Below, in pieces: positions 19,362 through 35,136 of a stretch of 39,617 nt of DNA; the stretch's first letter is position 1, and every line of letters begins with the position of its first letter. The position numbers and the translations under genes are program-made. This DNA comes from Clostridia bacterium (lineage in GTDB: Bacteria > Bacillota > Clostridia > Oscillospirales > CAG-272), in NCBI GenBank assembly GCA_024404665.1, contig JAKSPQ010000001.1, forward strand, positions 1-39,617. The letters run 5' to 3'. A model generated the notes under the pieces. It was not told the DNA's origin, did not search any database, and was given only the letters and a program-made list of their open reading frames with translations.

Positions 19362-19362
19362 T

Positions 19363-19415
19363 AAAACCGTGTATATCAAAAAGTCCCGGACTTTTTGATA
19401 TACACGGTTTTTTCG
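19363..19415. terminator. Strong bidirectional intrinsic terminator between the ANTAR gene and the convergent GH-like gene
   Basis: The stem is about 22 bp: aaaaccgtgtatatcaaaaagtcc / ggactttttgatatacacggtttt. T-rich tracts flank it on both strands. Confidence 0.85.
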
Positions 19416-19467
19416 TAAAATATCTCTTAAATTAAGGTGCTTTATTCGAATACGAAGCACTTCCTGA

Positions 19468-21189
19468 TTATGAACGGCGTTCGACGATGAAGCCGAAGGC
19501 CTCAAGGCTGTGTCCGTCGTATTCGCGTGCTTCGTCGCTGTTGTTGCCTATGATTCTCGTGCCGTCTTCGTATACGGCTATTTCGATGCCGTCTTCGGCA
19601 AAGATGTAATCCGTCATATATTTAAGCTGCAGATCCTTTATCTGTTCGAAAATATCCATACCTTCCTTAACAGCCGCGACGCTTTCGTCAAGAGCTTCGA
19701 GAGTCAGATCGTCTTCACCCATCCAGTTTTTGGCTCCGGTGCGGAATCTCGAGTAGAAGTAGAATGAGGGCAGTCCGCCGCGCATTATGAACATGAGTCT
19801 GTCGCGGGGGTCCTTGATGGTGAAGTTTATCGTAGGACTTGCGGGGTTGTAAAGCAGAATGCCGTGGTATACGAGCTCCCAAAACGGAAGATACCTGTCT
19901 GCGAGTTCGTAAGAATTGTGTCCGAATCCGTCACCGAACGTAACGTACAGGGCATAGTCCAGATACGGAATGGCAAAGTCCATCGCTCCCTCTGAACAGA
20001 AGCCTCCGTACAGAACCTGATTGAAATGCATCAGTCGCTGAGAATACACGATGCCCTCGGCGGTGGTGCAGGGGTGGAGCGGGGAATGGCAGGAGTCAGG
20101 CTCGATAATCGAGATTACATCGGTGAAATGAAGGCCGTTTTCTCCCATAAGAGCGATTTTCGGCTCGCTTTGGATTGCGTTTGTCCACTGCTTTTTAGGA
20201 CAGACATGGTAAGCGTATCCCGAGCTGTAGTGACCGATCTGGAGGTAATGCCCCTCCTTGTCGGTGGCAACGTTGTCCCAGGAGAAGTTGTCGGCAATTT
20301 CATAGCTGTCCACCCAGATGGTATGCGTGGAGATTCTGTAGCCGAGATTTTTGACATATTCTATGGTCTTTCTCATCTCGGTCTCTCCGCCGAGTCTTTC
20401 TTCGACGGGGAAAAACTGCGGGAATCTTCCGTCGTGACCGCCTATGGACCAGCCCACCAGCTGGAGATCGGCTTTTTCCACGCCCTGCTTTTTAAGAGAG
20501 TCCGCGATGCTGCGCACATCGGCAAAGGTGCAGGCAACATGCATCGGCGGTTCGTTGTCAGGTGTCTGATGCTTTACCGGAGAAGGACTCTGCTTCCAGC
20601 CCATGCGAATGCGGATGAGAGGTGCCTGCCTCTGATATTCCATAACCTCGCGGGCTTCGCATTTTTCCGACAGCGGGGATATTTCTTTTCTGGCAAGTCT
20701 GATGTTCCTTTCGGCAGCCGCCATTTCGGGATAGCCGGCGCTTTCGGGAAGCTCGATAATCTCGATTCTTATGTCGTCATAGGGATAATCGGTATCGACC
20801 TTCTCGAAATTTACGATCGGAGTGACGGTGTAAACGCCATCGCGACACAGGATCTCATATCTGAATTTGTAATTTCTCTCCAGACGGACGATGCAGCAGA
20901 GTCCCGGTTTTTTTATTCCGTAAAAGGACATTATCGGCTTGGAATACTCGGTGACGGCATCCGGACGGTCCTTAAAGAAGACCTGGAAGTCGGCGCGCAT
21001 TCCTATGTTGCGGGGCATAACGTAATATCCCTCGTCGCCTGCGTGAGCCATGCTGAGCTCGGGAAGAAGGCGCAGTTTTTTAGAGTTAGAAAAAAGTGAT
21101 TTATCCAAGGTCAGAAGCTTGTTGCCGTTTTTTTCGGAAACAGTGAATTCAAGCTGTTTTCCGTTCTCGTCGTATGCAAAAAAGTTCAT
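19468..21189 (-). CDS. Hypothetical protein, possibly a TIM-barrel glycoside-hydrolase-like enzyme
   Basis: The long ORF has coding-like composition and a GGAG SD 7 nt before the ATG at 21189. The ATG at 21195 sits only 1 nt from the SD. An AraC regulator lies divergently. The function guess rests only on weak resemblance (VGWSIGGHDGRFP...) and on context. Confidence 0.7.
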   Translation of the reverse strand: MNFFAYDENGKQLEFTVSEKNGNKLLTLDKSLFSNSKKLRLLPELSMAHAGDEGYYVMPRNIGMRADFQVFFKDRPDAVTEYSKPIMSFYGIKKPGLCCIVRLERNYKFRYEILCRDGVYTVTPIVNFEKVDTDYPYDDIRIEIIELPESAGYPEMAAAERNIRLARKEISPLSEKCEAREVMEYQRQAPLIRIRMGWKQSPSPVKHQTPDNEPPMHVACTFADVRSIADSLKKQGVEKADLQLVGWSIGGHDGRFPQFFPVEERLGGETEMRKTIEYVKNLGYRISTHTIWVDSYEIADNFSWDNVATDKEGHYLQIGHYSSGYAYHVCPKKQWTNAIQSEPKIALMGENGLHFTDVISIIEPDSCHSPLHPCTTAEGIVYSQRLMHFNQVLYGGFCSEGAMDFAIPYLDYALYVTFGDGFGHNSYELADRYLPFWELVYHGILLYNPASPTINFTIKDPRDRLMFIMRGGLPSFYFYSRFRTGAKNWMGEDDLTLEALDESVAAVKEGMDIFEQIKDLQLKYMTDYIFAEDGIEIAVYEDGTRIIGNNSDEAREYDGHSLEAFGFIVERRS

Positions 21190-21291
21190 AATCATACTCC
21201 TTTTAAAAATTGTACAGATTATTATAATTGAAAAACGGACCTGAGTCTATACCGAAACACAATAAAAAAGTTTGAAAAAGCAATATTGTGC

Positions 21292-21321
21292 TTGACAGGA
21301 CAGCCGGTCTGATTGTATAAT
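21292..21321 (+). promoter_or_regulatory. Sigma-A type promoter of the AraC-family gene
   Basis: TTGACA (21292-21297), an 18-nt spacer, then TATAAT (21316-21321), preceded by TG. The ORF-track TTG start at 21313 lies inside this -10 region. Confidence 0.55.
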
Positions 21322-21369
21322 ACTGTAGGTATCCGGATTATGTTCGAAAAAATGAGATGGAGAAAAAAT

Positions 21370-22366: not shown

Positions 22367-23962
22367 TTGAGTATTTGTGATTCGATTACAAAAGAAAATA
22401 TAGAGAGAAGACGCACCTTCGCCATTATCTCTCACCCTGACGCAGGTAAGACTACGCTTACCGAGAAGCTTCTGCTTTACGGCGGAGCGATTCAGTCGGC
22501 AGGCTCGGTTAAAGGAAAGGCTTCCGACAGGCATGCCGTTTCCGACTGGATGGAAATGGAAAAGAAGAGAGGAATCTCGATAACATCGTCGGTTATGCAG
22601 TTCGAATTCAACGGATATTGCGTAAATATCCTTGATACTCCCGGACACCAGGATTTCTCGGAGGACACTTACCGCACGCTTATGGCAGCCGACAGCGCTG
22701 TTATGGTCATAGATGCCGCAAAGGGCATTGAGCCTCAGACCCGCAAGCTTTTCAAGGTCTGCGCAATGCGCCACATCCCGATTTTTACGTTTATCAACAA
22801 GCTTGACCACGATGCGAGAGACCCCTTCGATCTGCTGGATGAGCTGGAAACCGAGTTCGGCATCGGAACTCATGCCATGAACTGGCCCATCGGCTCCGGT
22901 GTGTCGTTCAAGGGCGTTTATGACAGGGAGGCTCATAAGATCCTCTCGTTTGCCGATGCTCACAGAGGCCGTGACAGACTGGCCGCCATCGACTGCGACA
23001 TCAACGATACCGTAAGACTTGACGAACTCATCGGTGAGAAGCTCCGCGAGGAGCTCTGCGAGCAGATAGAGCTCATCGATGCCGCAGGCTTCGATTTTGA
23101 TATGGAGCAGGTCAGAACGGGAAAACTCAGCCCCGTATTTTTCGGCTCCGCGCTCAACAACTTCGGCGTTGAGACCTTCCTTGAGCACTTCCTCAGGATG
23201 ACTTCGTCTCCGCTGCCCAGAAACTCGGATATCGGCCCGGTCGATTCCTTTGACGAGGATTTCTCGGCGTTTGTTTTCAAGATTCAGGCGAATATGAACA
23301 AGGCGCACCGCGACAGAATTGCCTTCATGCGAATCTGTTCCGGAAAATTCGAGAAGAATACGGAGTATTACCATGTTCAGGGCGGCAAGCCCATCCGCCT
23401 CGCTCAGCCGCAGCAAATGATGGCGCAGGAGCGCGCAGGCGTCGATGAAGCCTATGCCGGAGACATTATCGGCGTATTTGACCCGGGAATCTTCTCCATC
23501 GGCGATACCGTCTGCTCCAAAAACAAGAAGCTTAGGTTCGATGCGATATCCTGCTTTGCTCCGGAGGTCTTCGCTCTTGTCGAGCAAAAGGATTCGATGA
23601 AGCGCAAGCAGTTCTCAAAGGGCATGAACCAGATCGCCGAGGAAGGCGCGATCCGCATTTTCTTTGAGCCCGACGGAGGCATGGAGCACGTTATCGTGGG
23701 CGTTGTGGGCGTCCTTCAGTTCGATGTGCTCGAATCCAGAATGAAGAGCGAGTACGGCGTGGAATACCGTCAGTACAGCCAGCCATACACGCAGATAAAA
23801 CGTGTTCCCGACGGTGTGGATCCCAAGTCTCTCAGACTGCTTGACGCGAAATGGGTAAAGGACCACAGAGACCGTAATTTCCTTCTGTTTAACAGCGAGT
23901 GGCATGTAAGACATGCTCTCGAACAGAACGAAGGCCTCGAGCTGCTGGAATACGATAATTAA
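22367..23962 (+). CDS. prfC: Peptide chain release factor 3
   Basis: 531 aa. GTPase motifs are present: AIISHPDAGKTTLTEK, DTPGHQDF and NKLD. It uses a TTG start with an AGAGGA SD 7 nt upstream. Confidence 0.94.
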   Translation: MSICDSITKENIERRRTFAIISHPDAGKTTLTEKLLLYGGAIQSAGSVKGKASDRHAVSDWMEMEKKRGISITSSVMQFEFNGYCVNILDTPGHQDFSEDTYRTLMAADSAVMVIDAAKGIEPQTRKLFKVCAMRHIPIFTFINKLDHDARDPFDLLDELETEFGIGTHAMNWPIGSGVSFKGVYDREAHKILSFADAHRGRDRLAAIDCDINDTVRLDELIGEKLREELCEQIELIDAAGFDFDMEQVRTGKLSPVFFGSALNNFGVETFLEHFLRMTSSPLPRNSDIGPVDSFDEDFSAFVFKIQANMNKAHRDRIAFMRICSGKFEKNTEYYHVQGGKPIRLAQPQQMMAQERAGVDEAYAGDIIGVFDPGIFSIGDTVCSKNKKLRFDAISCFAPEVFALVEQKDSMKRKQFSKGMNQIAEEGAIRIFFEPDGGMEHVIVGVVGVLQFDVLESRMKSEYGVEYRQYSQPYTQIKRVPDGVDPKSLRLLDAKWVKDHRDRNFLLFNSEWHVRHALEQNEGLELLEYDN

Positions 23963-23963
23963 T

Positions 23964-24008
23964 CGAAAAAAGGGATAGCGAAAAAGTGGGTGATTTTTTT
24001 GCTATCCC
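23964..24008 (-). terminator. Terminator closing the AT-rich RiPP-like operon (also 3' of prfC)
   Basis: The stem pairs gggatagc (23972-23979) with gctatccc (24001-24008). On the minus strand the hairpin is followed by TTTTTTCG. Confidence 0.6.
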
Positions 24009-24016
24009 TATTACTA

Positions 24017-25078
24017 TTAGTTGAAAAAAGAAGCAATGGCTTCTCTGACGCAGCCTAAAACACAATACTCATTGTTGATTATTCTTATCATACGAGAAAA
24101 CGCAGCTTGCTTGACTTTGTCATCTATAGAAAAATGTGACTTTAAAAACAGATTATGTACAATTTCTTGGTCGTCTAATACCGTGGCAAATTGATCTACC
24201 AAGTTTTGGGTGATTATGTTTTCGGATTTTAAAAACATCAATCTGTAATACATTATTCTTTTCAAATCAAGAAAGAACCTGCTATATCTTTCGTCAAGAA
24301 AAGCATTTTCCGGAGAAACAATATATTCGCAAAAGGCCCGTTCACAATCGATTCCGAACCTTTTTTCATCTTGTGTAACAGAAACAGACTCAAGATAATT
24401 ATCCAAAGAGGTATACAGTTCATTAAGATTTAACTCAAAATGGTATTCGGGATTTATCTTAAAAGCTTCGAGTTCGATTTTCTCATAGGATATTGTCTGT
24501 TTCTTTTCGAGGCTGAATCTGCGTCCGATCACGGCTGAAACAAAGCATTCGTATGGAATTGGATGAGAGAGATATTGTTTGCCACGTGTGTATCCTATGG
24601 CAATAAATGCAGCAGTTGCTTCATCATACCCATACAACAAAATCGAATGTCTGTGGTGTTTAACTAAATAACTGTCTGTGTTGGGAATGTGATATTCATC
24701 CACAAACCCCACCACATACCAACCATTATCGAGATGACTAATTGTGAAGTCTATTATTTCTGAAGATGATACACCGGAAATTCGATCGTATTCAAAGCGG
24801 TTTACTAATGTTGCACCGCATTTTTGAAAATAACGACCATCAGGCATATAGTGACAAAACTTCTTTTTGGCATTTGGATCATAGTAACAATTGATATATT
24901 GCCCGAATATCCATGGCGATTTGCATTGTAATACGCCAAGTTCAAAATTTCTTAATTGATAGGTTTGAATCCAAGGGTTCTCTTCAAGATATAGTATTAC
25001 GCTCATTTGATTAATGATGTATGGAACGGAAAGAATGGTAGTTTTTTCAAACAACAATGGCTTTTTTGAGACGAACAA
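24017..25078 (-). CDS. Hypothetical protein; possible papain-fold C39-like / BtrH-like cysteine hydrolase or acyltransferase
   Basis: 353 aa, the last gene of the AT-rich operon. Candidate Cys...His elements are LQCKSPW / INCYY and HSILLYGYDE, the latter resembling the H-x-hydrophobic-x-G-Y-D motif of C39/BtrH_N-type proteins. The start is uncertain: TTG at 25078 overlaps the upstream gene by 32 nt, and the alternative is ATG at 25006. Confidence 0.6.
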   Translation of the reverse strand: MFVSKKPLLFEKTTILSVPYIINQMSVILYLEENPWIQTYQLRNFELGVLQCKSPWIFGQYINCYYDPNAKKKFCHYMPDGRYFQKCGATLVNRFEYDRISGVSSSEIIDFTISHLDNGWYVVGFVDEYHIPNTDSYLVKHHRHSILLYGYDEATAAFIAIGYTRGKQYLSHPIPYECFVSAVIGRRFSLEKKQTISYEKIELEAFKINPEYHFELNLNELYTSLDNYLESVSVTQDEKRFGIDCERAFCEYIVSPENAFLDERYSRFFLDLKRIMYYRLMFLKSENIITQNLVDQFATVLDDQEIVHNLFLKSHFSIDDKVKQAAFSRMIRIINNEYCVLGCVREAIASFFN

Positions 25079-26468
25079 GAAAATCCGTGTTTTTTCCGGT
25101 GTCCTGTGTCATGATTTCTTTTATTTTGTGGCGCTGTTTAATATAAGACACCATTTTTTCTTCGACTTGGCTACCAATTGCTCTGCATGATACTGCAAAC
25201 ATGATCAGCTTATCTTCTTCGATTCCAATAGTGCCGATGAGTCCGAATTCTCCGTATGCGTTTTTAAGGAAAACCGAATAGAGAAACGGAACCTTTTTTA
25301 AATCTTTTACAGTGAAACGGCCGCCATTAGTTTTTTTATTTGTCCTGAATGATAACTCTGATATTCTATTATACTCAGTTGGGGTTGCTGGGTGAATATC
25401 TATTTCTTCATTTTCATTTGCTAAATAAGATCCGGTGACCTGTGGGAAATTGCGATAATTGCCCGCTCGGGTTTGAGGCAAGATAGAATTGGCGCCGGAT
25501 AGTTTGAAACAACTTAAATCGGAAAAAAAAGATTTGGAATTGAATAAAACGGAAGTGATATCCGGAAGCAAAGCTTTAACTTCATTAATTTCGGTTTCGG
25601 AATCGTCGACAAAAACTATACTGTTCTGTGAAATACCGAGCGTTTTTGCAATAGTAATAAGTCCCTTTGATTTTGAGGAGTTGTCACCCCATATATAAGA
25701 TATGTGTTCTCTTTTTATTAGCATGCCGCTGTGGCTATCCAACACATCTTGTACATCTTCTCTTGAGTTCTTAGTACATAAGCATAAAATCACTCCGCAA
25801 TAAAATAGATGAAGCACAAAACGTTGAAAGTCTTCATATGCTCTTGAAACATTTATACCTTCTAAACCATCCTCGCTTAATATGCCTTCCCATAATACTC
25901 CGTCACAATCCAAAGCAAGGCATTTGGGCGTTTTGAAGTGATAAACTGAATAGACGATATTTATTTCTTTGACAAACGCTTTGACAATCTTCTCGCTGTA
26001 TGGGGCCGACCATCGATATTTGTTTTTGAAATCATAAGCTATTGTAATACCGGCGTCTGCTATTATTCGTTTAGTATCGATGAGGAAATCATCGGGTGAA
26101 ATAATCGATGAAATTTGAATATTAAGCTTGTCTGCCAGGTGATTCAAAACATAAACAGATCCAAAAATGGATGTGTCATTGCAATAATAATCTTCATAAC
26201 CAAACCAAATGACAGGAATAGAAGTGAGTGATTTTATTCTTTTATATATATCACCGGTCAATGAGCATATGCCGTCCGGAGACATTGTTCGCAGAGCTTC
26301 TTCTAAATTGATCATTAATACGACGAAATCGGCATTTGAAGTTCGAATCTCATCGATGGAAGACAGTGAAAAATACCGACTGTGGCTTTTTTCTCCGAAT
26401 GTGGATTTGATACATTCACCCAAAAACGGCTCAAGGATAATATTGCTTATGAAATCAAGCTCTATCAT
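25047..26468 (-). CDS. FkbH-like HAD-superfamily IIIC protein with C-terminal GNAT-like domain
   Basis: 473 aa with HAD motifs: LALDCDGVLWEG (DxD), CTKNSREDV and VFVDDSETEINEV. The C-terminal FkbH-type tail is FGLIGTIGIEEDKLIMFAVSCRAIGSQVEEKM. It overlaps the ACP gene by 14 nt. Confidence 0.82.
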   Translation of the reverse strand: MIELDFISNIILEPFLGECIKSTFGEKSHSRYFSLSSIDEIRTSNADFVVLMINLEEALRTMSPDGICSLTGDIYKRIKSLTSIPVIWFGYEDYYCNDTSIFGSVYVLNHLADKLNIQISSIISPDDFLIDTKRIIADAGITIAYDFKNKYRWSAPYSEKIVKAFVKEINIVYSVYHFKTPKCLALDCDGVLWEGILSEDGLEGINVSRAYEDFQRFVLHLFYCGVILCLCTKNSREDVQDVLDSHSGMLIKREHISYIWGDNSSKSKGLITIAKTLGISQNSIVFVDDSETEINEVKALLPDITSVLFNSKSFFSDLSCFKLSGANSILPQTRAGNYRNFPQVTGSYLANENEEIDIHPATPTEYNRISELSFRTNKKTNGGRFTVKDLKKVPFLYSVFLKNAYGEFGLIGTIGIEEDKLIMFAVSCRAIGSQVEEKMVSYIKQRHKIKEIMTQDTGKNTDFLVRLKKAIVV

Positions 26469-26724
26469 TGTTTAACTCGCTTTTGTATATGTTGCTCAAT
26501 ACCAGGTGAATTTTATTTATGGTGTTTATCTTTGACAAAATTAACATATCAATCGGAATCTCACAATCAAACGCTTTCTCGAGCGAAACAACAATACGCA
26601 CAAAGCCGATCGAATCAATATTTAATTCTTCAAATGGCGTATCAACATCCGATACGGATATACTGTAAGCGTTAGAGCAAGAGTTGACAGTTTTTATGAT
26701 TATGTTAAGTTCCGGGTGTATCAT
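26455..26724 (-). CDS. Acyl carrier protein
   Basis: 89 aa. The phosphopantetheine-attachment context is ELNIDSIGFVRIVVSLEKAF (DS motif at a helix II start). It overlaps both neighbours. Confidence 0.78.
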   Translation of the reverse strand: MIHPELNIIIKTVNSCSNAYSISVSDVDTPFEELNIDSIGFVRIVVSLEKAFDCEIPIDMLILSKINTINKIHLVLSNIYKSELNNDRA

Positions 26725-27595
26725 TTGGAATCCCTCTGAACATTGCTTTATTGATCTCTATTTTACGGATATCTGAAGAAGTCAAGTCCTGCGCAATCAA
26801 AGAATAAATATCGGTTGAGCTGAGACGGCAGGAAATATCACAATTCCACGGTTTTCGTTCTTTGTCACAAAGCCCATAATAGTTTAAGAGCTCAGTTCCT
26901 TCTCTTGATTTGAAAGCAGAGATGTAACCATCGAGGATCTCGTCATTGAAAATTAATCCGGTGTGGAATAGAACATAGAAGGCATATGGGATGATATCAT
27001 ATTTTTGACAAGCTTCGTAAAGTTTTTGCGGAGTAAGTTTGTCGTGGTGACGAACTAATAGCTGATATACATCGTTGAACGCAGTCTTATTTATGCTTTT
27101 TCTTGTTGCGAGAAGATAAATGCTGTTCATGTCTCTGTAGATGTGCAAAGCCAATTGGATAAAGGTGTTTTCATAGGATAGCGTTTTTACATCAAATCCA
27201 AACAGATTAATTGAGACTGTATCCGCAAGAAAATCAGATACCGGGATGCGTTGTCTGTCATACTCTCCCCAGGTGACATCGAAGTTAATGTCATAAATCA
27301 AGTTTCCGGTGTGATCTGTGTAGGTGGGAAGTTGATGTGAGTACAATTCGCAAAATATCTCACGCTCTTGGGAGTAATTCTGAACGTGAAAACAATTCTT
27401 TTTCAAGGCTTCCTTCATTTTACCGATACTATCCCGGCATATAAGAATATCAAGGTCATTGTATTCTCGAATGTTGGGATCGTTATATAATATTTGGGAC
27501 AACGCCGGCCCTTTGATTATTGCATAAGGTGCAGAAAAATCATTTAATACGGGCTTGAGTTTTGTTAAATACAATTTGCTCCACAATTTATGCAT
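26705..27595 (-). CDS. Nucleotidyltransferase-family protein (NTP_transf_5-like)
   Basis: 296 aa. The N-terminal signature YAIIKGPALSQILYNDPNIREYNDLDILICRDSIGKMKEALKKNCF matches the pattern G.aL....Y.....R...DiDlLv of the uncharacterised nucleotidyltransferase family. Confidence 0.75.
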   Translation of the reverse strand: MHKLWSKLYLTKLKPVLNDFSAPYAIIKGPALSQILYNDPNIREYNDLDILICRDSIGKMKEALKKNCFHVQNYSQEREIFCELYSHQLPTYTDHTGNLIYDINFDVTWGEYDRQRIPVSDFLADTVSINLFGFDVKTLSYENTFIQLALHIYRDMNSIYLLATRKSINKTAFNDVYQLLVRHHDKLTPQKLYEACQKYDIIPYAFYVLFHTGLIFNDEILDGYISAFKSREGTELLNYYGLCDKERKPWNCDISCRLSSTDIYSLIAQDLTSSDIRKIEINKAMFRGIPNDTPGT

Positions 27596-27597
27596 GA

Positions 27598-28449
27598 TTA
27601 GTACCCAAAAGAAAAAGATTCAAGCGATTGTTTCAGCAATGGAATTGAGTTTGGAATTGTCATTTTAAAAGCGTGAATGTGCGAGAGTGCATTAACAGCA
27701 TTGTTGATACATTCAAAAGGAAGGTATTCGTTTCCAATGATATTGTTCGCCAAAAGGATTTGTTTCTTGATTTTTGAACCGATCTCTTTTGTTTCGATTT
27801 TCTCTGAATCATGTCTATCGAGATAAAAAATGCGCCCCAAAGTGGTGCTGCTTTTGTTGGAAGCCATAAGGTCAATCGCAGAATCAGGGAAAAAGTATGC
27901 TTTCCCGGAAATGTTATATCCCTTGGTTTGTGAAAGTTCGCGATGGTCGAGAATCGATTTATCAATCCGAATGAATGAACCTGAGGAGCAACAAAGGTGC
28001 GGGCAGGCTAGAGAGACGCATATGGTATCATCTCCGACAAACGGGTAATAGGAAGACATCAAGTAGGTGAGAGTTGATTTTCCCACCTTTTTATTACCGG
28101 AAAAGATACATATTTTATCGTTTATCAATACTGCCGACCCATGAATCAAAACGCATTCTTTTGAGATTGCCAAAAAAACGCCGAATGGAATATTGAAAAC
28201 AGATGATACTACTTTGTTAATGTCATCGGAAAAAACCGTGATGTTTTTTTGGAGGGGATCTATCAAATACACCAAATTAAAATGAAAATCAATGATGATT
28301 TTATCATTCTTAAGCGATTCATTGTATTCAGAGAAGGAATGAACGCAGATGTCTAAATCAACCTCGGATGACGGATTGTATTCTGTAAGAATGTCAATTT
28401 GAAAATTTGTACGGGTTATGATTCCGTAAATCATATAGTATTTATTCAT
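27598..28449 (-). CDS. HPr-kinase-like serine kinase (HprK C-terminal domain homologue)
   Basis: The motif IHGSAVLINDKICIFSGNKKVGKSTLTYLMSSYYPFVGDDTICV matches the HprK catalytic/P-loop region. The ATG at 28449 overlaps the ABC stop by 8 nt. An upstream in-frame start at 28482 is possible. Confidence 0.78.
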   Translation of the reverse strand: MNKYYMIYGIITRTNFQIDILTEYNPSSEVDLDICVHSFSEYNESLKNDKIIIDFHFNLVYLIDPLQKNITVFSDDINKVVSSVFNIPFGVFLAISKECVLIHGSAVLINDKICIFSGNKKVGKSTLTYLMSSYYPFVGDDTICVSLACPHLCCSSGSFIRIDKSILDHRELSQTKGYNISGKAYFFPDSAIDLMASNKSSTTLGRIFYLDRHDSEKIETKEIGSKIKKQILLANNIIGNEYLPFECINNAVNALSHIHAFKMTIPNSIPLLKQSLESFSFGY

Positions 28450-30217
28450 AGCAAGAACTCTGAGCAGTATACATTTTGGCATATAGACCGTTCATGCTCA
28501 TCAAATCATCGTGATTTCCTTCCTCGGTTATACATCCGTTCTCAATGACCAGTATGCGGTCTGCTTTTCGGCAGAATACTAATCTGTGAGATACAATGAT
28601 CATTGAGCGGTTTTGTGTTGTGCTTAGAATATTTTCAATCAAATCTCTTTCCATAATTGGATCCAATGAATTTGACGGCTCATCAAGAACCAATATCTTT
28701 GATGACCTGAGAAGTGCTCTTGCCAGGAAAAGGCGTTGCTCTTCTCCTCCGGATAAGACAATACCTTTTTTATCAAATGATCTTTTCAACTGTACGTCAT
28801 AGCCCTTGGGATTATCCGCAAACTTCTCAGTCATTTGGACTTTTTCCAAAGCTTTAGTGATTTCCGTGTCCGAATATGAATGGCCAAAGGTCAGGTTGGT
28901 TCTTAGTGTATCGGGATAGAGTATGCCATCTTGAAACACTACAGCCATCTGCCTCCTTAAAGACACGAGGTCATATGATTTGATGTCTCGGCCGTCGATC
29001 AGTATTTCTCCTTCTTGTGGATCATACAGGCGGAATAAAAGTTTGGTAATTGTTGTTTTTCCGGCACCATTTTCTCCTACGAGACACACATGTTCTTGGG
29101 GGCGAATAACAAAAGACAAATTATTTAAGGTCGGATGGTCACAGTTGGGATATGTGAAAGAGACGTTTTTGAATTCAATAATATAGCTGTCTCTATCGGG
29201 AAGGGGAATTTGTGAATCGGTGGAGAGCTCAACAGTGCATTCCTCATTTAATATTGCTCTCAAATCGTCGATGAAGCGTGATTGTTGCCCGAGAGACGGA
29301 ACATTGGCTACCAACGTGTTTAACTGTTGTGTCAATGAAGTGACTGCATTGACTATTGACATAAATGATCCCAAAGTGATGATTCCGCCTATGATATCTT
29401 TTGAGACCAACAGCATTACAGCCAAAGAGGCTAACGAAGCAACCAATGCCTCTAAATATAGCCATGAGTTGGTTTTGTGACAGTATTTGAGATTTTGTTT
29501 GATATTATTCTCTTGTTCTTTTGAGTAATAATCGATATAAAAGTTTCCCGAGTCATACATTCTCAACTCTTTTAGCGTTACCGAAGACCAAAACAGTGCG
29601 GCTAAATAATTATTGGTATGTCTTTTTGCGCGGGTCAAAACAACACTTTTCTCGTATTCCAATTTGTTGTTTTTTGATAGAACAACGTAAGATATTAAGA
29701 CGCTGATACAGGCTATTAGGAAAAATAAAAAATTATGTGTCAGAATTTGAATTAGTGACACGATTGAAACAATAGTAATAAAGCTGGAGAACAAAGAAAT
29801 ATAAGTCCCCGCCAGTCGTTGTATCGCACCGTCCGCTTGCTTGAGTGCTCTCGTTTTTTTGTCGTAAAAATCAGGGTCATCAAAGCATCTGAAATCCAAA
29901 ACAAGGGCTTTTACCATCATTTCTGTTGTCATACGAAGCGATAAAGACGAAAAGGCTTTTTCGGTGTAATAATTCGTGAAAATGGTAAAGATCTCACAAA
30001 TCAGCAGAATGAGGACGTATGTCAATACAACTGGCAATACTTGAGTGATTGTTGAAGCAGAAGCTACAGCATCAAGTATTTTACCAATAAAATAAATGCT
30101 TGACACATATCTCAATGCCTGGAACAGTCCGCAAAGGAAAAAGAACAGAAAAACAAAAGGGTTGTATTTCCACAAAAAAACGGACATAAAGGAAATGTTT
30201 TTAATAGTATGTCTCAT
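28442..30217 (-). CDS. ABC exporter, fused permease + ATPase (no N-terminal C39 peptidase domain)
   Basis: 591 aa. About six N-terminal TM segments are followed by Walker A (LVGENGAGKTT), signature (LSGGEEQR) and Walker B (ILVLDEPSNSLD). An ATGA overlap joins it to the radical SAM gene. Confidence 0.9.
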   Translation of the reverse strand: MRHTIKNISFMSVFLWKYNPFVFLFFFLCGLFQALRYVSSIYFIGKILDAVASASTITQVLPVVLTYVLILLICEIFTIFTNYYTEKAFSSLSLRMTTEMMVKALVLDFRCFDDPDFYDKKTRALKQADGAIQRLAGTYISLFSSFITIVSIVSLIQILTHNFLFFLIACISVLISYVVLSKNNKLEYEKSVVLTRAKRHTNNYLAALFWSSVTLKELRMYDSGNFYIDYYSKEQENNIKQNLKYCHKTNSWLYLEALVASLASLAVMLLVSKDIIGGIITLGSFMSIVNAVTSLTQQLNTLVANVPSLGQQSRFIDDLRAILNEECTVELSTDSQIPLPDRDSYIIEFKNVSFTYPNCDHPTLNNLSFVIRPQEHVCLVGENGAGKTTITKLLFRLYDPQEGEILIDGRDIKSYDLVSLRRQMAVVFQDGILYPDTLRTNLTFGHSYSDTEITKALEKVQMTEKFADNPKGYDVQLKRSFDKKGIVLSGGEEQRLFLARALLRSSKILVLDEPSNSLDPIMERDLIENILSTTQNRSMIIVSHRLVFCRKADRILVIENGCITEEGNHDDLMSMNGLYAKMYTAQSSCYE

Positions 30218-31572
30218 TCCTCAGCCTCCTCTTCATCATCTTCTTCAGTATCGTCACGGTTCTTAAGAAGCGATGCGAAATACATTGTCATCATTTTGTC
30301 AACAAGTGGATGAAAGGTGTTGCAACTTGCAATTCCTTCCTTTAACCATTGGGCCGGGCAAGTACCTCCATAGCAGACAGGGAGATCTTTACAGCTAATG
30401 CATCCCCGGGCTTTAATTGCGGATTCCGGAGCTGAGAGCCATTGTCTGTGTTTTTTTTCATCAATATCAAATATACCGTTGTTAACGAAACCAATTTTAT
30501 TGATTGCATCATCATCCAGGTATTCAGTACATTTTCTAATCGTTCCATCAACATCGATAACCAGACAATGCTTGTTTCTTGCATAACATAATGGTGCTGC
30601 GGGATTTAAATTTGAGTAGTATTCCTCAATTCCGATATTGTTTTCGGCAAAGACATCGAAAATATAATCCTGTGCCAGTATTTCAGCTTTGTTTGAAACA
30701 AAATCATACTTGAGCTTTGTGTTTGATGGCGGGTTGATCTTAGCACAGAAAAAATGAAATCTAGGGTCGTCAAAATCAGCCTTCAATCCCAATAGGATTT
30801 CGGGTAAACGTTCTAGCATATCCGTATGATAATTGATCCGAATTCTGATATCTATATTCTGAAGATCGGTTTCTTTGATTGACATTAGATTGGAGTGTAT
30901 TCTGTCCCAGGTTCCGTCTCCGTTTTTTAAAACACGAAGCTCATCATGGAAATGCTTGTTTCCGTCAAGAGTGATCTGATATGTTGTCAACTTCAATTTG
31001 GCCAATTCTTTGGCTTTTTGTGATGTCAAAAGATACCCGTTGGTTGTCATTGACATCCAAAAGGCAATTGATGTATTGTCGCAGTATTCTTTCAGTGCTC
31101 TTGCTATTAATACTATTTGATCGAAACATAACATGGGCTCCCCTCCAAACCACTCAATATGAAGTGCCTTGATTTGGGGATGGATTTGCAAATAATGAAT
31201 GGTTCCGCGAATTATATTCTTGATTAAATCGCTATCGTAGAACTCGGTCCGTTTTTCTTCATAACAATAAGTGCATCTGAAATTGCATTCTCTTGTCGGA
31301 AGCAAAATAAGACGGAGGGTCTCTCCGTCATTTAATAGTTTATTAACGAAATTAATCGCATCGACAGTTTCATCGCGGTTTTCCGGAACTAAAACGCCGG
31401 CTTTTACCAGTCGATTATCAGGGGCCTCAAGATACCCGTTAGCCGAACGTTTTAATTCTGAAAGCAGTTCATCATCAAATATTCTTGCTTTAAAACCGCG
31501 TAGCGAATTGTATATGCACAACTCACCGTCGATGTTATAAAATCTGATATATTTGGATAATTTGTACTTCAT
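30214..31572 (-). CDS. Radical SAM / SPASM-domain peptide maturase
   Basis: 452 aa. The rSAM cluster is LLPTRECNFRCTYCYEE (CxxxCxxC), about 95 aa from the N terminus, leaving room for an RRE/PqqD-like leader-binding domain. C-terminal auxiliary-cluster Cys motifs are CLVIDVDGTIRKC and CISCKDLPVCYGGTC...C. A polyacidic tail (DDTEEDDEEEAEE) ends the protein. The start lies 3 nt after the precursor stop. Confidence 0.9.
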   Translation of the reverse strand: MKYKLSKYIRFYNIDGELCIYNSLRGFKARIFDDELLSELKRSANGYLEAPDNRLVKAGVLVPENRDETVDAINFVNKLLNDGETLRLILLPTRECNFRCTYCYEEKRTEFYDSDLIKNIIRGTIHYLQIHPQIKALHIEWFGGEPMLCFDQIVLIARALKEYCDNTSIAFWMSMTTNGYLLTSQKAKELAKLKLTTYQITLDGNKHFHDELRVLKNGDGTWDRIHSNLMSIKETDLQNIDIRIRINYHTDMLERLPEILLGLKADFDDPRFHFFCAKINPPSNTKLKYDFVSNKAEILAQDYIFDVFAENNIGIEEYYSNLNPAAPLCYARNKHCLVIDVDGTIRKCTEYLDDDAINKIGFVNNGIFDIDEKKHRQWLSAPESAIKARGCISCKDLPVCYGGTCPAQWLKEGIASCNTFHPLVDKMMTMYFASLLKNRDDTEEDDEEEAEE

Positions 31573-31575
31573 ATG

Positions 31576-31749
31576 TTAAGAGGAGCATCCGCATGAAGCT
31601 GTGGTATTGGTTTGACAAGCGCTGCACCCGCATTGAACAACCGTGTTACACACACTACATCCGCATCTGGAAACAGTGTTGCATTTGCTGCATGAGGTCT
31701 GTGCTGCTTTTGAATCTAATAATTGAAACAAGTCCTCGAATATTTCCAT
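31576..31749 (-). CDS. Cys-rich RiPP precursor peptide (57 aa), not in the supplied ORF track
   Basis: My own translation of the minus strand gives MEIFEDLFQLLDSKAAQTSCSKCNTVSRCGCSVCNTVVQCGCSACQTNTTASCGCSS*. An AGAGGG SD lies 8-9 nt upstream and a consensus promoter about 35 nt upstream. The stop lies 3 nt before the rSAM ATG. It has an acidic/hydrophobic leader, 10 Cys and three CGCS repeats. Confidence 0.75.
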   Translation of the reverse strand: MEIFEDLFQLLDSKAAQTSCSKCNTVSRCGCSVCNTVVQCGCSACQTNTTASCGCSS

Positions 31750-31784
31750 AAAGAGAGCCCTCTTTCTAAGAATATTTTTATATT

Positions 31785-31813
31785 ATTATAACATAGTTCA
31801 ATTCAAAAGTCAA
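31785..31813 (-). promoter_or_regulatory. Consensus sigma-A promoter of the RiPP-like operon
   Basis: On the minus strand: TTGACT (31813-31808), a 17-nt spacer, then TATAAT (31790-31785). Confidence 0.65.
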
Positions 31814-31936
31814 TAGATTCTTTATTACTGGATTTATGTTGTTGTAGTGTTACAATTGATGCCCGAGTCCCTATTTTGCACGAAAACAACGTTTTTTGCT
31901 CAAAAATAACCTTAAAAAAGCCATTTTCAAGGCGAA

Positions 31937-31980
31937 AACAGCCGAAATCCTTCATTTTGGACATCGGCTGTTTTTGTTTT
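31937..31980 (+). terminator. Orphan terminator-like hairpin plus T-tract with no upstream plus-strand gene
   Basis: The stem pairs cagccga (31939-31945) with tcggctg (31964-31970) and has an inner tcc/gga pair. It is followed by tttttgtttt. It sits in the 390-bp non-coding gap at the right edge of the AT-rich island. Confidence 0.35.
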
Positions 31981-32091
31981 CCGGTAAACTCGGGTTATAT
32001 CAGATTTTATTGCCTTTGTCCTGCTTTTTTTTTAATAATTAACGTCAGGACTTCGGTTCCACCCCAACATTAATTTTAGAACCCTGATTAA

Positions 32092-32134
32092 AACCGGATG
32101 CGGCAAAAGTCAAAAGCTTTTGCCGCATCCGGTT
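32092..32134. terminator. Strong hairpin terminator 3' of the GH-A hydrolase gene
   Basis: The 18-bp perfect stem is aaccggatgcggcaaaag / cttttgccgcatccggtt. On the minus strand it is followed by TTTTAAT, and it starts 3 nt after the stop codon. Confidence 0.8.
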
Positions 32135-32137
32135 GTT

Positions 32138-33481
32138 TTAGAGTTCAAAATAAATCGTCTGATACTGTCCGAGGGTGAACTGCTTGCAGTTGATTTTTTT
32201 CGGTGTCAGGAAATGCTTTTCGTCTATGGCGTAGGCGGAAAAGCCCGCATCGAGGTTGGTCCTCACGAGCTTTTTTTCAGCGTTGTTGGTAATAAGAACG
32301 CCTTTTTTGGCGCCATCGGTCGCGGCGATGGCGTAGAGACCGTCGCCGGTGTCACCGGTGAGCTCGACCTCGTTTCCCATGGCATAAAGCTTGCCGAAGG
32401 CTGTAAAGGAGTAAAGCGTGCAATAGGGAGTCCTCGTTGTGGGATCAAAAAAGCCGGCGTATACGCTTGTGCCGTAGCGGGCATCGTAAAAGCACATCAT
32501 CGACATTTTTGTCGCATGCATGGCGATCATCATCGCGGCAACATCGGCTGCCGCTTTGGTTGTTCCGCGGGTTTCGCGGGTTCGGTCGGTATTCCACTCG
32601 TTCAGGTGGATTTCAACGTCGGGGAAGCCGGCCCTCGCAAGAAGCTCTTCGGCGTATTTCTGAACTTTTGTTGTAAGTCTGACGTCCATGTAGCTGTGGT
32701 GTGAGAAGAAATCAAAGGGGATACTGTCGCGTTTGATACGCTCCAGAAATCCTTCCAGGAATTTTGTGTGATATATCGCGCGTTCTTCCCAGTGGGTTAT
32801 CTCGTGAGGCGCTTTATACTTCTCCGATTCGCGCATATATCCGAGATAAAGCCCCGTCGATGCATAGCCTCCGACCTTTATACTGTCTCCGAAGCATTTC
32901 TTCAGATGCGTGGCTGTTGCCGCGTACAGATCGTAATACTGCAGAGCGGTGCCCTTCCACATGTTGTTGAGGGCGATGTCCTCCTCGTTGTCTGGCTCGT
33001 TCCAGATTTCCCAATAGGTGATGCCGTAGCGGAAACCGTCGGCCCAGCCCTCGTTGTAATGGCGGACGATGTGCTCGCAGATGCGCGCCCATTTTTCAGG
33101 ATCACGGGGCGGGAATATGCGGTAAGCCTTAATCATATGGGCGTTTTCGATGGTTACGCCAAGGCGGAAGTAGGGCTCAAGGCCCCAGGCCATCATCTTT
33201 TCCAGCAGAGCGTCCGTAAAAGCGAAATCGTATGAGGCGGGATCGTTTTCATCGGCCTCGAAATCACGGAAAAGATTCGGAACGTCAACGAAAAAGTAAC
33301 TGCCGAAATCCCCGTAAGTGTCGTGAAGACGCGAGTAAGGAATGTTTGCCTCCTTCAGATAGTGAAAGAGGGAATCGTCAATTCCGTCGTCTCCGACACC
33401 GAGAGGCGGCTGGCCGACTGCGTGCATGGGCTTTATTTTCCCTACTGTTTTGCCGAAATCAAAAATAAGCTTTTTATTCAT
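32138..33481 (-). CDS. Clan GH-A glycoside hydrolase (GH39/GH5-like TIM barrel), cytoplasmic
   Basis: 447 aa. The acid/base context is YWEIWNEPDN and the candidate nucleophile context is EIHLNEWNT. There is no signal peptide. Confidence 0.8.
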   Translation of the reverse strand: MNKKLIFDFGKTVGKIKPMHAVGQPPLGVGDDGIDDSLFHYLKEANIPYSRLHDTYGDFGSYFFVDVPNLFRDFEADENDPASYDFAFTDALLEKMMAWGLEPYFRLGVTIENAHMIKAYRIFPPRDPEKWARICEHIVRHYNEGWADGFRYGITYWEIWNEPDNEEDIALNNMWKGTALQYYDLYAATATHLKKCFGDSIKVGGYASTGLYLGYMRESEKYKAPHEITHWEERAIYHTKFLEGFLERIKRDSIPFDFFSHHSYMDVRLTTKVQKYAEELLARAGFPDVEIHLNEWNTDRTRETRGTTKAAADVAAMMIAMHATKMSMMCFYDARYGTSVYAGFFDPTTRTPYCTLYSFTAFGKLYAMGNEVELTGDTGDGLYAIAATDGAKKGVLITNNAEKKLVRTNLDAGFSAYAIDEKHFLTPKKINCKQFTLGQYQTIYFEL

Positions 33482-33513: not shown

Positions 33514-35136
33514 TCATGTTGCGGGAAACACGGTGTGTTCGATAAACCCTTTTGCGAACACTTCGTAATCCTCAAGATTGATTGCAGATGCGGATTCGCT
33601 CAGCTCCTTCATGATGCTCAGCGCATTTTCATCGCAGAGCGCTGCGACGGCGCCCTTCAGCGCTGTGTTTCCCACGGTTTCCGTTCGGTATTTGAAGCAC
33701 TCGGGAATCATGCCGATGACGGCTGCGTTTTCGGGATTCATATAAAACCCGAAGCCTCCCGCGATGAAAACCCTGCCGCCGGCAGCGATAAAGCTCTCCG
33801 GCGTGTAATCAGCCGCGGCCAAAAGGGTTTCCGTTCCGGCGTAAATTGCGCTTTTTGCAAGCTGAATCTGTCTGATATCGCCCTGCGTGAGCATTACGGA
33901 CGGAACCGCTTCCGGCTTGGCTAAGCCTCCCTGTGGGTATATCCGCAGCTCCGGGGAGGTATCGTGTGAGCCGCTGAGTACGGCCGGAGCTCCGAAAAGC
34001 CTGAGACGGCCGTCTTTTTCAAGGAGACCGGATCTGAGCAGAAATGCCGTAAAATCAAGAAGACCGCTGCCGCATATGCCGTTTGCCGGCGCATTTCCGA
34101 CCGTTCTGTAAATCAGATGTCCGTCGATGGCTCTTACAGAACAAACCGCTCCGGCTACTCCGCCTGTGCCGCAGGAAATATTGGCTCCTTCAAAAGCAGG
34201 ACCTGCAGCTGCCGATGTGGCCAAAAGCCGTCCTGGGCCTTCAGCCGGCCTTTTTTCGGAGCCTATGTCAAGCACCATTTCGGCGTTTGTTCCTATATCG
34301 AGGAGGAGCTTCGGCGCATCGGATCTGCCGAATTCAAGGGAATACATTCCGGCGGTTATGTCGCCGCCGTCAAAAGCGGATATCGACGGAAGAAGTGTGA
34401 TACCGTTCACTGGCAGACCGAGCTCCTTGCCCGGGATAACGCGCGCGTCCCTGAAGGCGGGAGTGAACGGATAACGTCCCATCCCCTCGGGTGAAATGCC
34501 GGCAAACAGGTGCAGCATCGTCGCGTTTCCGGCAACGGTCATGTCGGGCGGGGCTTCCGCGTCGCTCCCGAACCCGGGCAGAAGCTTCTCCAGAAGCTCT
34601 CTTACGGCTTTTGTTACGCTGCTCTGCAATTCGTTCAGATGCCCCGCCGATGCAGCCGTTATTCGGCTGATTACATCGGCGCCGAAAGCGGCCTGAGGAT
34701 TTAAGCACGATGCCGTCGCTGCGATTTTTCGGGTTTTCAGATTAACCTTCGCAGCCGCAATAGTGGTTGTTCCAATGTCGAGCGCGATGCCGAAGGGGCC
34801 GTCATTTCCCGCATCTTCAGTCGGCAATTCAAGACCTCTTCCAACCGGGTTACGTATCGCAATATGTGTGCATTCCTTTGAGCAGTAAGCCTTGCAGGCG
34901 GGAACCGTTCCGTTTTCATCCGGAATAAGGGGGACTCCGTTCTTGTCCGTGAGCTTCCCCTTCAATACTTTTACCCGGCACTTACCGCAGGTTCCGTTTC
35001 CCCCGCAGGGCATGCTGATTGAATGACCGAGCACGGGGAGTACGGAGGCTAGTTTCATTCCCACTGTCCCCAGCGGTATTTTAACAATGATTTCGTTCTT
35101 GTCTTTTTTCATTGGCTTTATCTCGGTTTTCGGCAT
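33514..35136 (-). CDS. 2Fe-2S ferredoxin + ASKHA (DUF4445/RACo-like) protein
   Basis: 540 aa. The N-terminal plant-type ferredoxin Cys pattern is PCGGNGTCGKCRV ... PACKAYC. An ASKHA phosphate-1 motif GIALDIGTTTIAAAKV follows. This architecture matches reductive activators of corrinoid enzymes. Confidence 0.82.
   Translation of the reverse strand: MPKTEIKPMKKDKNEIIVKIPLGTVGMKLASVLPVLGHSISMPCGGNGTCGKCRVKVLKGKLTDKNGVPLIPDENGTVPACKAYCSKECTHIAIRNPVGRGLELPTEDAGNDGPFGIALDIGTTTIAAAKVNLKTRKIAATASCLNPQAAFGADVISRITAASAGHLNELQSSVTKAVRELLEKLLPGFGSDAEAPPDMTVAGNATMLHLFAGISPEGMGRYPFTPAFRDARVIPGKELGLPVNGITLLPSISAFDGGDITAGMYSLEFGRSDAPKLLLDIGTNAEMVLDIGSEKRPAEGPGRLLATSAAAGPAFEGANISCGTGGVAGAVCSVRAIDGHLIYRTVGNAPANGICGSGLLDFTAFLLRSGLLEKDGRLRLFGAPAVLSGSHDTSPELRIYPQGGLAKPEAVPSVMLTQGDIRQIQLAKSAIYAGTETLLAAADYTPESFIAAGGRVFIAGGFGFYMNPENAAVIGMIPECFKYRTETVGNTALKGAVAALCDENALSIMKELSESASAINLEDYEVFAKGFIEHTVFPAT

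Follow-up and report, generated by a model that had tools for sequence, protein, structure and literature searches.

We analyzed a 39,617-nucleotide (nt) stretch of DNA (hereafter, the window), which covers positions 1 to 39,617 of contig JAKSPQ010000001.1 of a Clostridia bacterium (assembly GCA_024404665.1). A short open reading frame (ORF) on its minus strand, at positions 31576-31749, is confirmed by comparison of related loci as a conserved coding gene under strong purifying selection. The ORF lies immediately upstream of a gene for a radical S-adenosylmethionine (rSAM) enzyme, and an initial annotation, made from the letters of the window, had proposed that it encodes the precursor of a ribosomally synthesized peptide that is modified post-translationally (RiPP). 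Because the ORF is conserved together with its frame and Cys spacing in all related loci, and because purifying selection is strong, the comparison supports its identification as a genuine, previously unannotated RiPP precursor gene that serves the adjacent rSAM enzyme. Taken as a whole, the precursor and its operon probably make a Cys-rich RiPP that is cross-linked by the rSAM enzyme and tailored at its C-terminal Ser.

The precursor gene and its peptide family

The loci that we compared with the window were eight independent contigs of the rSAM clade (L001-L010) and six contigs of species-representative metagenome-assembled genomes (MAGs; L011-L016). Wherever a related locus extends upstream of its rSAM gene, an in-frame homologue lies directly upstream of that gene, and these small ORFs are Cys-rich, run on the same strand as the rSAM gene and have the same Cys spacing. 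A homologous ORF in the same position and frame was found in L001-L007 and L009-L016, more distant versions were found in L008 and L017, and the L018 version is only loosely related; the in-frame ORF is retained across loci with rSAM identity of 36-82%. Between the window and L006, the rSAM proteins of which are 82% identical, the 57 codons of the ORF show 20 synonymous and 3 non-synonymous differences (pN/pS ~0.04). It had been expected that a true precursor gene would persist beside rSAM homologues with its frame and Cys spacing, and that the pattern of synonymous and non-synonymous changes would be that of a coding region; the small ORF is present throughout, and the 20 versus 3 differences point to coding sequence.

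Alternatively, the frame could be open by chance, or the stretch could belong to a non-coding leader of the rSAM transcript. The ORF is indeed short, Pfam and NCBIfam contain no family that matches the peptide, and a search of the protein collection with the peptide as a single-sequence query found nothing, as none of the entries had enough 5-mers in common with it; the exact peptide is apparently absent there. Conversely, a chance frame would not be expected to show a pN/pS of 0.04 with 20 synonymous changes, or to remain in frame over such a range of rSAM divergence. A ribosome-binding site and a promoter-like site are also present, no Rfam family matches the precursor region, and the overlapping antisense ORF 31593..31751 (+) is interrupted by stop codons in its counterparts in other loci. 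Given the pN/pS, the lack of an Rfam match and the broken antisense frame, we rejected a chance ORF or non-coding RNA, and the probability left to it is negligible.

Translated from its ATG on the minus strand, the ORF yields the peptide MEIFEDLFQLLDSKAAQTSCSKCNTVSRCGCSVCNTVVQCGCSACQTNTTASCGCSS, and the sequence details given in the initial annotation all proved correct. There are ten Cys residues (positions 20, 23, 29, 31, 34, 40, 42, 45, 53 and 55) and three CGCS motifs (residues 29-32, 40-43 and 53-56); the composition of residues 17-57 is restricted to C, S, T, N, Q, V, G, A, K and R, with Ser-Ser at the C-terminus. The leader spans approximately residues 1-18 and the Cys-rich core approximately residues 19-57. 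The translation signals that had been noted hold as well, namely, an AGAGGG Shine-Dalgarno sequence 8 nt before the ATG and tight coupling to the rSAM gene, the stop codon (31578-31576) being separated by 3 nt from the rSAM ATG at 31572. Just upstream of the precursor gene, at 31813..31785 (-), lies the top-scoring promoter-like site within 23500-32500, with 11 of 12 consensus matches, and we infer that it would drive the operon.

A profile built from nine locus-derived peptides retrieved 14 unnamed database peptides without Pfam domains, and a HMMER scan of 1.84 billion representative proteins gave 16 matches at E <=0.001, of which ~12 are genuine. With the database matches included, there are 32 distinct peptides. 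The carriers that could be identified are all MAGs of uncultured Clostridia (Oscillospiraceae, Christensenella, Eubacteriales and Lachnospiraceae) from samples of the gut or rumen type. Judged from these searches, the family is real but rare and uncatalogued. The NCBIfam precursor models gave nothing meaningful for 22 family members at E up to 10, and a literature search, which left most subscription journals outside its coverage, found no relevant paper that prints QCGCS, AQCGC, SQCGC or CGCSS.

Three CGC motifs are present in 27 of the 32 peptides, and CGC is invariant in a 22-sequence alignment of the family. Asn occupies position -5 relative to CGC in 84 of 91 motifs, and Gln immediately precedes CGC in 62 of 91. 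The alignment thus defines the family unit, N-[TS]-x-x-[QR]-C-G-C, in three copies, preceded by a leader with the motif M-[DE]-I-F-[DE]. Of the repeat claimed for the window peptide, the three CGCS stand, whereas (S/Q)-C-G-C-S-x-C-(N/Q)-T does not hold as the unit, because the Cys of its SxC part is variable; C20, C23, C34 and C45 of the window peptide are such variable extras within the family. Of the 32 peptides, 29 end in Ser, which is also C-terminal in the more distant peptides of L018, L021 and L034 and in a small ORF of Clostridium perfringens. It should be noted that in the L008 peptide (L008:552..743, MVIFDSIQDILGETQTDAFAAVAANNSVPMCGCALYQPQCGCITYAVVQCGCTTTTS) the three CGC pairs are the only Cys pairs.

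One database peptide, P0132 (94 aa), has a long leader of the double-glycine type (...SQIVGG) directly before NNTVAQCGC; it contains three QCGC modules and, behind them, an extended Gly/Ser/Asn tail that ends in CGS. Because this leader ends in ...IVGG right before the first Asn, P0132 suggests that the core begins near that Asn, and it likewise suggests that some members of the family use a GG-type leader. For the window itself, a double-glycine/C39 export system was considered and ruled out: there is no Gly-Gly in the peptide, and the exporter has no peptidase domain. Both facts had been noted initially and were confirmed here, the former from the sequence and the latter with hidden Markov models (HMMs).

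Maturase, tailoring genes and related loci

The rSAM protein of the window contains the motif CNFRCTYC and seven conserved Cys residues in the SPASM region. C96, C100 and C103 (CxxxCxxC) and C329, C348, C391, C394, C400, C405 and C417 are invariant in 17 sequences of its clade, which consists of ~19 database clusters at 43-82% identity, followed by a sharp drop to <=35%. A structural model based on a multiple sequence alignment has a mean confidence (pLDDT) of 88.9, and its N-terminal domain (strands in residues 3-31, helices in 34-81) is modelled at pLDDT >90. A Foldseek search with this model ranked CteB (5why/5wgg) first, with E of 4e-17 over ~455 aligned columns at 17-18% identity, followed by ChlB, anSME, TigE and SuiB; CteB was also the sole match in a sequence search of the PDB. 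Because the superposition is near full-length, it includes the RiPP recognition element (RRE) of CteB, and the N-terminal domain is predicted from the model to be an RRE-like (PqqD-like) leader-binding domain.

The top NCBIfam matches of the window rSAM are maturases of Cys-rich peptides, all below the curated cut-offs: TIGR04463 (172 bits versus a cut-off of 525), the geopeptide maturase TIGR04280 (~163 versus 400), CefB (136 versus 600), Clo7bot (134 versus 600) and PapB (128 versus 340), with CcpM at 92 versus 500 and the SCIFF maturase ScfB at 66 versus 425. More distant rSAM relatives likewise fall under every curated NCBIfam cut-off. Because all these cut-offs are missed, the reaction cannot be transferred from a characterized equivalog, and the window rSAM is best described, from its sequence, as a member of an uncurated maturase lineage with a deduced reaction. 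In the plasmid collection, there was no close rSAM relative (<=32% identity), and the best match, on a Bacillus cereus plasmid, lies in an unrelated context.

The rSAM gene is followed by a gene for a fused ATP-binding cassette (ABC) exporter, which adjoins the rSAM gene in all loci. The alignment of the exporter with the C39-containing NHLM ABC model starts only at profile position 159. Next comes a gene for an HprK-related P-loop protein, the true start of which may be M12 at 28449. This kinase-like protein has the HprK-type signature H...GxxGxGK[ST]...DD, in which H114, K131, G134-K135, T137 and D151-D152 are invariant among orthologues. Its own match to TIGR04355 is weak (E 2.7e-4; 20 bits versus a cut-off of 200), and seven orthologues match HprK_rel_B (4 of 7, best 8e-8), HprK_rel_A (3 of 7) and, weakly, ScmC (PF27840; 2 of 7), all below cut-off. 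A profile of the family matched the Hpr(Ser) kinase 3tqf in the PDB weakly (E 0.038), aligned across exactly the HprK motif; the protein had no match in single-sequence searches of the PDB and none in the plasmid collection. The initial annotation had pointed to the C-terminal Ser-Ser as the kind of acceptor used by HprK-like RiPP kinases, and this suggestion gains indirect support from the prevalence of C-terminal Ser in the family (29 of 32) and from the HprK-type signature on the gene two past the rSAM. In the literature covered, no paper ties HprK to rSAM precursors, and searches for ScmC returned unrelated acronyms only. As a separate observation, two ORFs (148 and 151 aa) take the place of a single kinase-like gene in L004:13122..14023, and also in L005:4713..5614; the gene may have become a pseudogene by frameshift, or the protein may truly consist of two parts.

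The next gene encodes a nucleotidyltransferase of the NTP_transf_5 family, which co-occurs with the kinase-like gene across loci. By analogy with PsmN, which we take to be a PF14907 member (the pseudomycoidin paper gives no Pfam accession), it is predicted to decorate phospho-Ser. In L010:13891..15408 and L018 (~13022-14506), this protein has 505 aa, with ~220 extra C-terminal aa that have no Pfam match.

The last three genes encode an acyl carrier protein (ACP), an FkbH-like protein and a BtrH-like protein. The FkbH-like protein scores 130.7 bits against TIGR01686, slightly under the cut-off of 146.65, and 45.3 against TIGR01681, above the cut-off of 35.75, and it matches 3slr in the PDB; it is predicted from these matches to load the ACP with a glycerate-derived unit. 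No paper that ties FkbH to RiPP or rSAM systems was found in the literature covered. The BtrH-like protein, which likely starts at M25 (25006) and thus has 329 aa, scores 20.9 bits against PF14399 (cut-off 29.7), a model that is matched by three of five homologues. Four of the five retain C87 and H144, the candidate catalytic residues, and D127 and Y149-G150-Y151 are invariant. Searches of the PDB with a profile of the BtrH-like family gave nothing meaningful, and those with the single sequence gave no match.

Comparison of gene content points to a conserved core set that consists of the precursor, the rSAM enzyme, the ABC exporter, the HprK-like kinase and the NTP_transf_5 nucleotidyltransferase. 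All five are present in the window and in L001, L002, L004, L006, L007, L009-L015 and L018, i.e., in nearly all loci that are long enough to judge, and in all these thirteen loci and the window the kinase-like and nucleotidyltransferase genes adjoin the ABC gene. The genes for the ACP, the FkbH-like protein and the BtrH-like protein occur together, as an optional module, in the window, L004, L006, L007 and L020; L001 and L034 have the ACP and FkbH-like genes with no BtrH-like match detected; and L008 has an ACP, an AMP-dependent ligase and a BtrH-like protein, without the kinase or the nucleotidyltransferase. In L008, the segment with the ACP, the AMP-binding ligase and the BtrH-like homologue (L008:4131..6826) is followed by an agr-type histidine kinase with a LytTR regulator.

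The tailoring genes extend beyond the clade. Genes for the kinase, nucleotidyltransferase, ACP and FkbH-like protein also occur beside distant rSAM genes (28-33% identity; L034, L020). Next to distant rSAM genes at 28-30% identity, L034:8743..8865 encodes a different Cys-rich, Ser-terminated peptide, MYFLSDIDSLNGSNGNCPPGCDTNCGCKGKCNGCQGSCGS, and L021 (~8700-8837) encodes a Cys-rich peptide that also terminates in Ser (...SVCGCKGYCNGCKSKCSGACVGVCS); both loci have the kinase-like gene, and L034 additionally has the nucleotidyltransferase, ACP and FkbH-like genes. These peptides suggest a wider superfamily of Ser-terminated Cys-rich RiPPs. In L020, which has the tailoring cassette, no convincing precursor was found, and insertion sequence (IS) elements flank and interrupt the locus. 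The same tailoring gene set is carried by 56-kb mobilizable plasmids of C. perfringens (L092 = NZ_CP148674.1, record 6257-27072). This cassette includes an HprK-related gene, two ABC genes and a nucleotidyltransferase 39% identical to that of the window. After these come VOC, ACP, FkbH (217.5 bits against TIGR01686, which exceeds the cut-off) and a gene of 328 aa, and the cassette has three other rSAM genes and a gene for signal peptidase I beside it. Just upstream of the kinase-like gene, at L092:5166..5291, there is an unannotated ORF, MLRMSKKKYVKPTLKTVKVDKAVMVAASRSGMGNCKITFLS, which ends in ...TFLS. Because the cassette is portable and C-terminal Ser is near-universal, these loci provide the best indirect evidence that the tailoring cassette would act on the peptide C-terminus.

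Proposed pathway and its alternatives

From the existence, conservation, domain content and linkage of these genes, we infer each chemical step of the following pathway. The acidic and hydrophobic leader (M-[DE]-I-F-[DE]...) would dock on the N-terminal RRE of the rSAM/SPASM enzyme, which, by homology to CteB and PapB, would cross-link the core at the three N-x4-C-G-C modules. The likeliest links would be thioethers from Cys sulfur to carbon, of the ranthipeptide or sactipeptide type, with the conserved Asn residues as attractive acceptors. By analogy with paeninodin and pseudomycoidin, the HprK-related P-loop protein would phosphorylate the C-terminal Ser57, and the NTP_transf_5 enzyme would put a further group, which is a hexose in pseudomycoidin, on the Ser phosphate. 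In the sub-lineage of the window, the ACP would receive a glycerate-derived C3 unit from the FkbH-like protein, and the BtrH-like papain-fold protein would pass this unit on to the peptide or its appendage. The ABC transporter would export the product. Because the operon has no dedicated leader protease, removal of the leader, if any, would rely on another host protease.

The nature of the cross-links is the point at which another explanation is most relevant. A true RiPP precursor could be served by an rSAM enzyme that makes no thioethers and instead oxidizes Cys as anSME does, forms C-C or C-O cross-links, epimerizes residues or processes CGC in an unprecedented way. Such a reaction would be compatible with an enzyme that falls under all curated family cut-offs, is just 17-18% identical to CteB and has fold neighbours (ChlB, anSME, TigE and SuiB) that catalyze other reactions. 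However, the best sequence and fold matches, i.e., CteB, PapB, the CefB family and Clo7bot, are thioether formers or maturases of Cys-rich peptides, and the invariant residues of the core are Cys, the obligatory donors of thioethers; we consider non-thioether chemistry unlikely, albeit with an appreciable chance of being correct. The invariant CGC pairs could also be functional as free thiols, with the product being chiefly a metal- or redox-active peptide of the metallothionein, chalkophore or CGC-disulfide type. C-x-C clusters are typical metal-binding motifs, the family has three invariant C-G-C pairs along with variable extra Cys, and no recognizable immunity gene is found in it. Yet the peptide is found in strict linkage with an rSAM/SPASM maturase that contains an RRE, and genes for metal uptake, metal regulation or a receptor are absent from all loci. 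Cross-links need not consume all Cys residues, so that a thiol function would be compatible with thioether biosynthesis as far as function is concerned, but not as an account of biosynthesis; that the product is chiefly a thiol peptide appears quite improbable.

A different question concerns the last gene of the operon (24017..25078), which the initial annotation had named as a candidate leader protease. The match to BtrH_N is weak, but this domain is papain-like and close to the C39 and C70 peptidases (PMC10318531), the candidate catalytic residues C87 and H144 are present, and HMM searches found no other protease encoded in the operon. The distribution of the gene argues otherwise: it is absent in L002, L009-L015 and L018, the precursors of which carry the same kind of leader, and it is seen only with an ACP and an ACP-loading enzyme, including the AMP-ligase variant of L008; in the L007 homologue, neither the Cys nor the His is found at the aligned position. 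Carrier proteins are required by the characterized relatives BtrH, AsbE and CtaG, all papain-like transacylases; BtrH and AsbE use carrier-bound donors and free acceptors (PMC12865890). Because the BtrH-like gene tracks the carrier protein and is missing from most loci with the same leader type, the protein is more likely an ACP-dependent transacylase than a leader protease; the protease claim is thus weakened, and we assign it a small chance. In L001 alone, an 850-aa protein with a GNSNGG serine-hydrolase-like motif is encoded directly upstream of the precursor (L001:6976..9528), and it is possibly a locus-specific peptidase.

Several observations weigh against the proposed thioether-forming and Ser-tailoring pathway as a whole. 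The rSAM enzyme is below all curated cut-offs (best, 172 versus 525 bits). The kinase assignment rests on HMM matches below cut-off (E 1e-4 to 1e-8), one motif and the PDB match at E 0.038, and the FkbH (130.7 versus 146.65) and BtrH_N (20.9 versus 29.7) scores miss their cut-offs as well. The single-sequence AlphaFold model of the BtrH-like protein is unusable (pLDDT 31.7). The L008 peptide retains its C-terminal Ser in a locus without the kinase or the nucleotidyltransferase, and thus the Ser may matter for another reason. Neither a leader protease nor an immunity gene is identifiable in the family loci, and the whole family is known from metagenome-assembled genomes.

Operon layout and comparison with known systems

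The precursor gene heads eight co-directional genes that overlap or abut, from 31749 down to 24017. The coordinates are as follows.

Table 1. Features of the precursor operon in the window, with the basis of each assignment
Feature	Position	Strand	Basis and remarks
Promoter-like site, sigma-70-type	31785..31813	-	TTGACT-17-TATAAT with extended TG; consensus match only
Shine-Dalgarno AGAGGG	31758..31763	-	8 nt before precursor ATG, read from sequence
Precursor peptide gene	31576..31749	-	57 aa and stop; conserved homologues, pN/pS 0.04
Core module 1, N24-T-V-S-R-C29-G-C31	31657..31680	-	N-x4-CGC; alignment
Core module 2, N35-T-V-V-Q-C40-G-C42	31624..31647	-	Alignment
Core module 3, N48-T-T-A-S-C53-G-C55	31585..31608	-	Alignment
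Ser57 codon, predicted phospho-acceptor	31579..31581	-	C-terminal Ser in 29/32 family peptides; precedent PMC8498205, PMC6993621
Radical SAM/SPASM maturase, 452 aa	30214..31572	-	HMM matches, invariant Cys, fold match to CteB
ABC exporter, fused permease-ATPase, 591 aa	28442..30217	-	HMM; without C39 peptidase domain
HprK-related P-loop protein (ScmC/HprK_rel_A/HprK_rel_B type), predicted C-terminal Ser kinase	27598..28482	-	HMM, motif
NTP_transf_5 (PF14907) nucleotidyltransferase	26705..27595	-	76.3 bits versus cut-off 31.2, E 3.6e-21
Acyl carrier protein, 89 aa	26455..26724	-	PF00550 E 2e-9; D37-S38-I39 phosphopantetheine site
FkbH-like HAD-IIIC protein, 473 aa	25047..26468	-	TIGR01686, TIGR01681, DCDGV phosphatase motif
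BtrH_N-like papain-fold protein	24017..25078	-	PF14399 E 4.6e-4, below cut-off
17-bp hairpin	23971..24009	.	Between operon end and convergent prfC (22367-23962)

The hairpin at the operon end is likely a bidirectional terminator. The operon block (24-32 kb) has a GC content of ~37% (about 36-39%), compared to ~50-55% in the flanks, and this low GC relative to both flanks marks it as an island acquired by horizontal transfer. The island lies between a GH39-like gene (32138-33481) and prfC, and because L006 has the same prfC neighbour, the insertion site is common to the window and L006. At the island edges, we found no flanking direct repeats, tRNA, att-like site or integrase. Just downstream of the GH39-like gene, an inverted repeat of 18 nt without mismatches, with a loop of 7 nt (32092-32134), is probably the terminator of that gene; it marks the upstream edge of the island. 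Farther out, the gene at 33514-35136 (-) encodes 540 aa with a resemblance to the corrinoid activation/regeneration protein AcsV (288 bits versus a cut-off of 800) and is a host gene unrelated to the operon. Related clusters often lie within mobile DNA: L001 has an integrase and a PemK toxin (18880-21350), L004 has Rep and PcfJ/PcfK conjugation genes (5728-6675, 18953-21240), and L020 has IS elements (7462-8379, 10370-11006). Downstream of the L007 cluster (L007:8445..11078), a polysaccharide deacetylase is accompanied by a second ACP and by a second rSAM, which shares 29% identity with that of the window, and an IS110 transposase comes next.

It is possible, although doubtful, that the system is the founding example of a new RiPP class, in which a tri-(N-x4-CGC) core would be cross-linked by a divergent rSAM enzyme, and the C-terminal Ser would anchor a phosphate, a group added by the nucleotidyltransferase and an ACP-borne glycerate-derived unit, with the portable cassette serving several unrelated rSAM scaffolds, including one on C. 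perfringens plasmids. Polyketide-style carrier-protein chemistry would thereby be grafted on a ribosomal peptide. If the inferred pathway holds, rSAM peptide chemistry would gain a new precursor and maturase family, the thrice-repeated N-x4-CGC of which would make the cross-link rule easier to dissect. The pair of Ser kinase and nucleotidyltransferase would not be confined to lasso peptides and would constitute a portable module for any Ser-terminated RiPP. The window would also provide a first candidate for tailoring of a ribosomal peptide by a carrier-protein-dependent module of the FkbH/ACP/BtrH type. As the producers belong to the uncultured Clostridia of gut and rumen, the product could matter for competition or signalling in the microbiome; the C. 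perfringens plasmid cassette offers a culturable, experimentally tractable host. That standard annotation misses the precursor gene illustrates how useful it is to look upstream of orphan rSAM maturases.

Among known systems, ranthipeptides and sactipeptides (e.g., thermocellin with CteB, and freyrasin with PapB) resemble the window in several respects: the leader is short, motifs recur in a Cys-rich core, the maturase carries an N-terminal RRE, CxxxCxxC and a 7-Cys SPASM domain, and an ABC exporter adjoins it. CteB is the best PDB match of the window rSAM by both sequence and fold, and PapB is among its top HMM matches. However, the window rSAM is far under the PapB and SCIFF cut-offs, the thioether is predicted only, and the core with three N-x4-C-G-C modules and a C-terminal Ser matches none of the curated precursor families. 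In the literature covered, tailoring genes of the kinase, nucleotidyltransferase, ACP, FkbH or BtrH-like kinds are unreported in the ranthipeptide and sactipeptide classes.

The GeoRSP and SynChlorMet cassettes, which are known only from their NCBIfam/TIGRFAM definitions, resemble the window in that rSAM/SPASM maturases occur with HprK-related P-loop proteins. The second-best HMM match of the window rSAM is the geopeptide maturase, and the orthologues of the kinase-like protein match HprK_rel_A, HprK_rel_B and ScmC. Conversely, the window proteins score far under the respective cut-offs (~163 versus 400 for the rSAM; 20 versus 200 for the kinase-like protein), the precursor is different, and the hosts are gut and rumen Clostridia MAGs. 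To our knowledge, the GeoRSP and SynChlorMet cassettes are themselves uncharacterized.

The carrier-protein module has its likeness in the butirosin (BtrI/BtrH), petrobactin (AsbE) and closthioamide (CtaG) pathways, which, like the window, combine a standalone carrier protein and a loader with a papain-like protein whose C-terminal half is helical. These pathways are non-ribosomal, whereas the presumed acceptor in the window is a ribosomal peptide. The literature search, within its incomplete coverage, found no rSAM RiPP with an HprK-like and nucleotidyltransferase pair and no RiPP with FkbH, ACP and BtrH-like genes.

For the C-terminal tailoring, the precedent is in lasso peptides, in which the C-terminal Ser is phosphorylated by an HPr-kinase-like enzyme, and an uncharacterized nucleotidyltransferase is then needed for the addition of one or two hexoses to the phosphate (PMC6993621, PMC8498205). 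The paeninodin (PadeK) and pseudomycoidin (PsmK, PsmN) clusters share with the window genes for an HPr-kinase-like protein and an 'uncharacterised nucleotidyltransferase', and a precursor that ends in Ser. The window kinase-like protein is only distantly HprK-like, at the level of ScmC, HprK_rel_A and HprK_rel_B. In contrast to the lasso clusters, the window has a Cys-rich scaffold modified by an rSAM enzyme and no lasso cyclase or B protein, and its ACP, FkbH-like and BtrH-like module is not reported for the paeninodin and pseudomycoidin clusters. By mode of action, judged from these analogies, the closest known counterparts of the window operon would be the ranthipeptide and sactipeptide systems combined with C-terminal tailoring of the lasso type.

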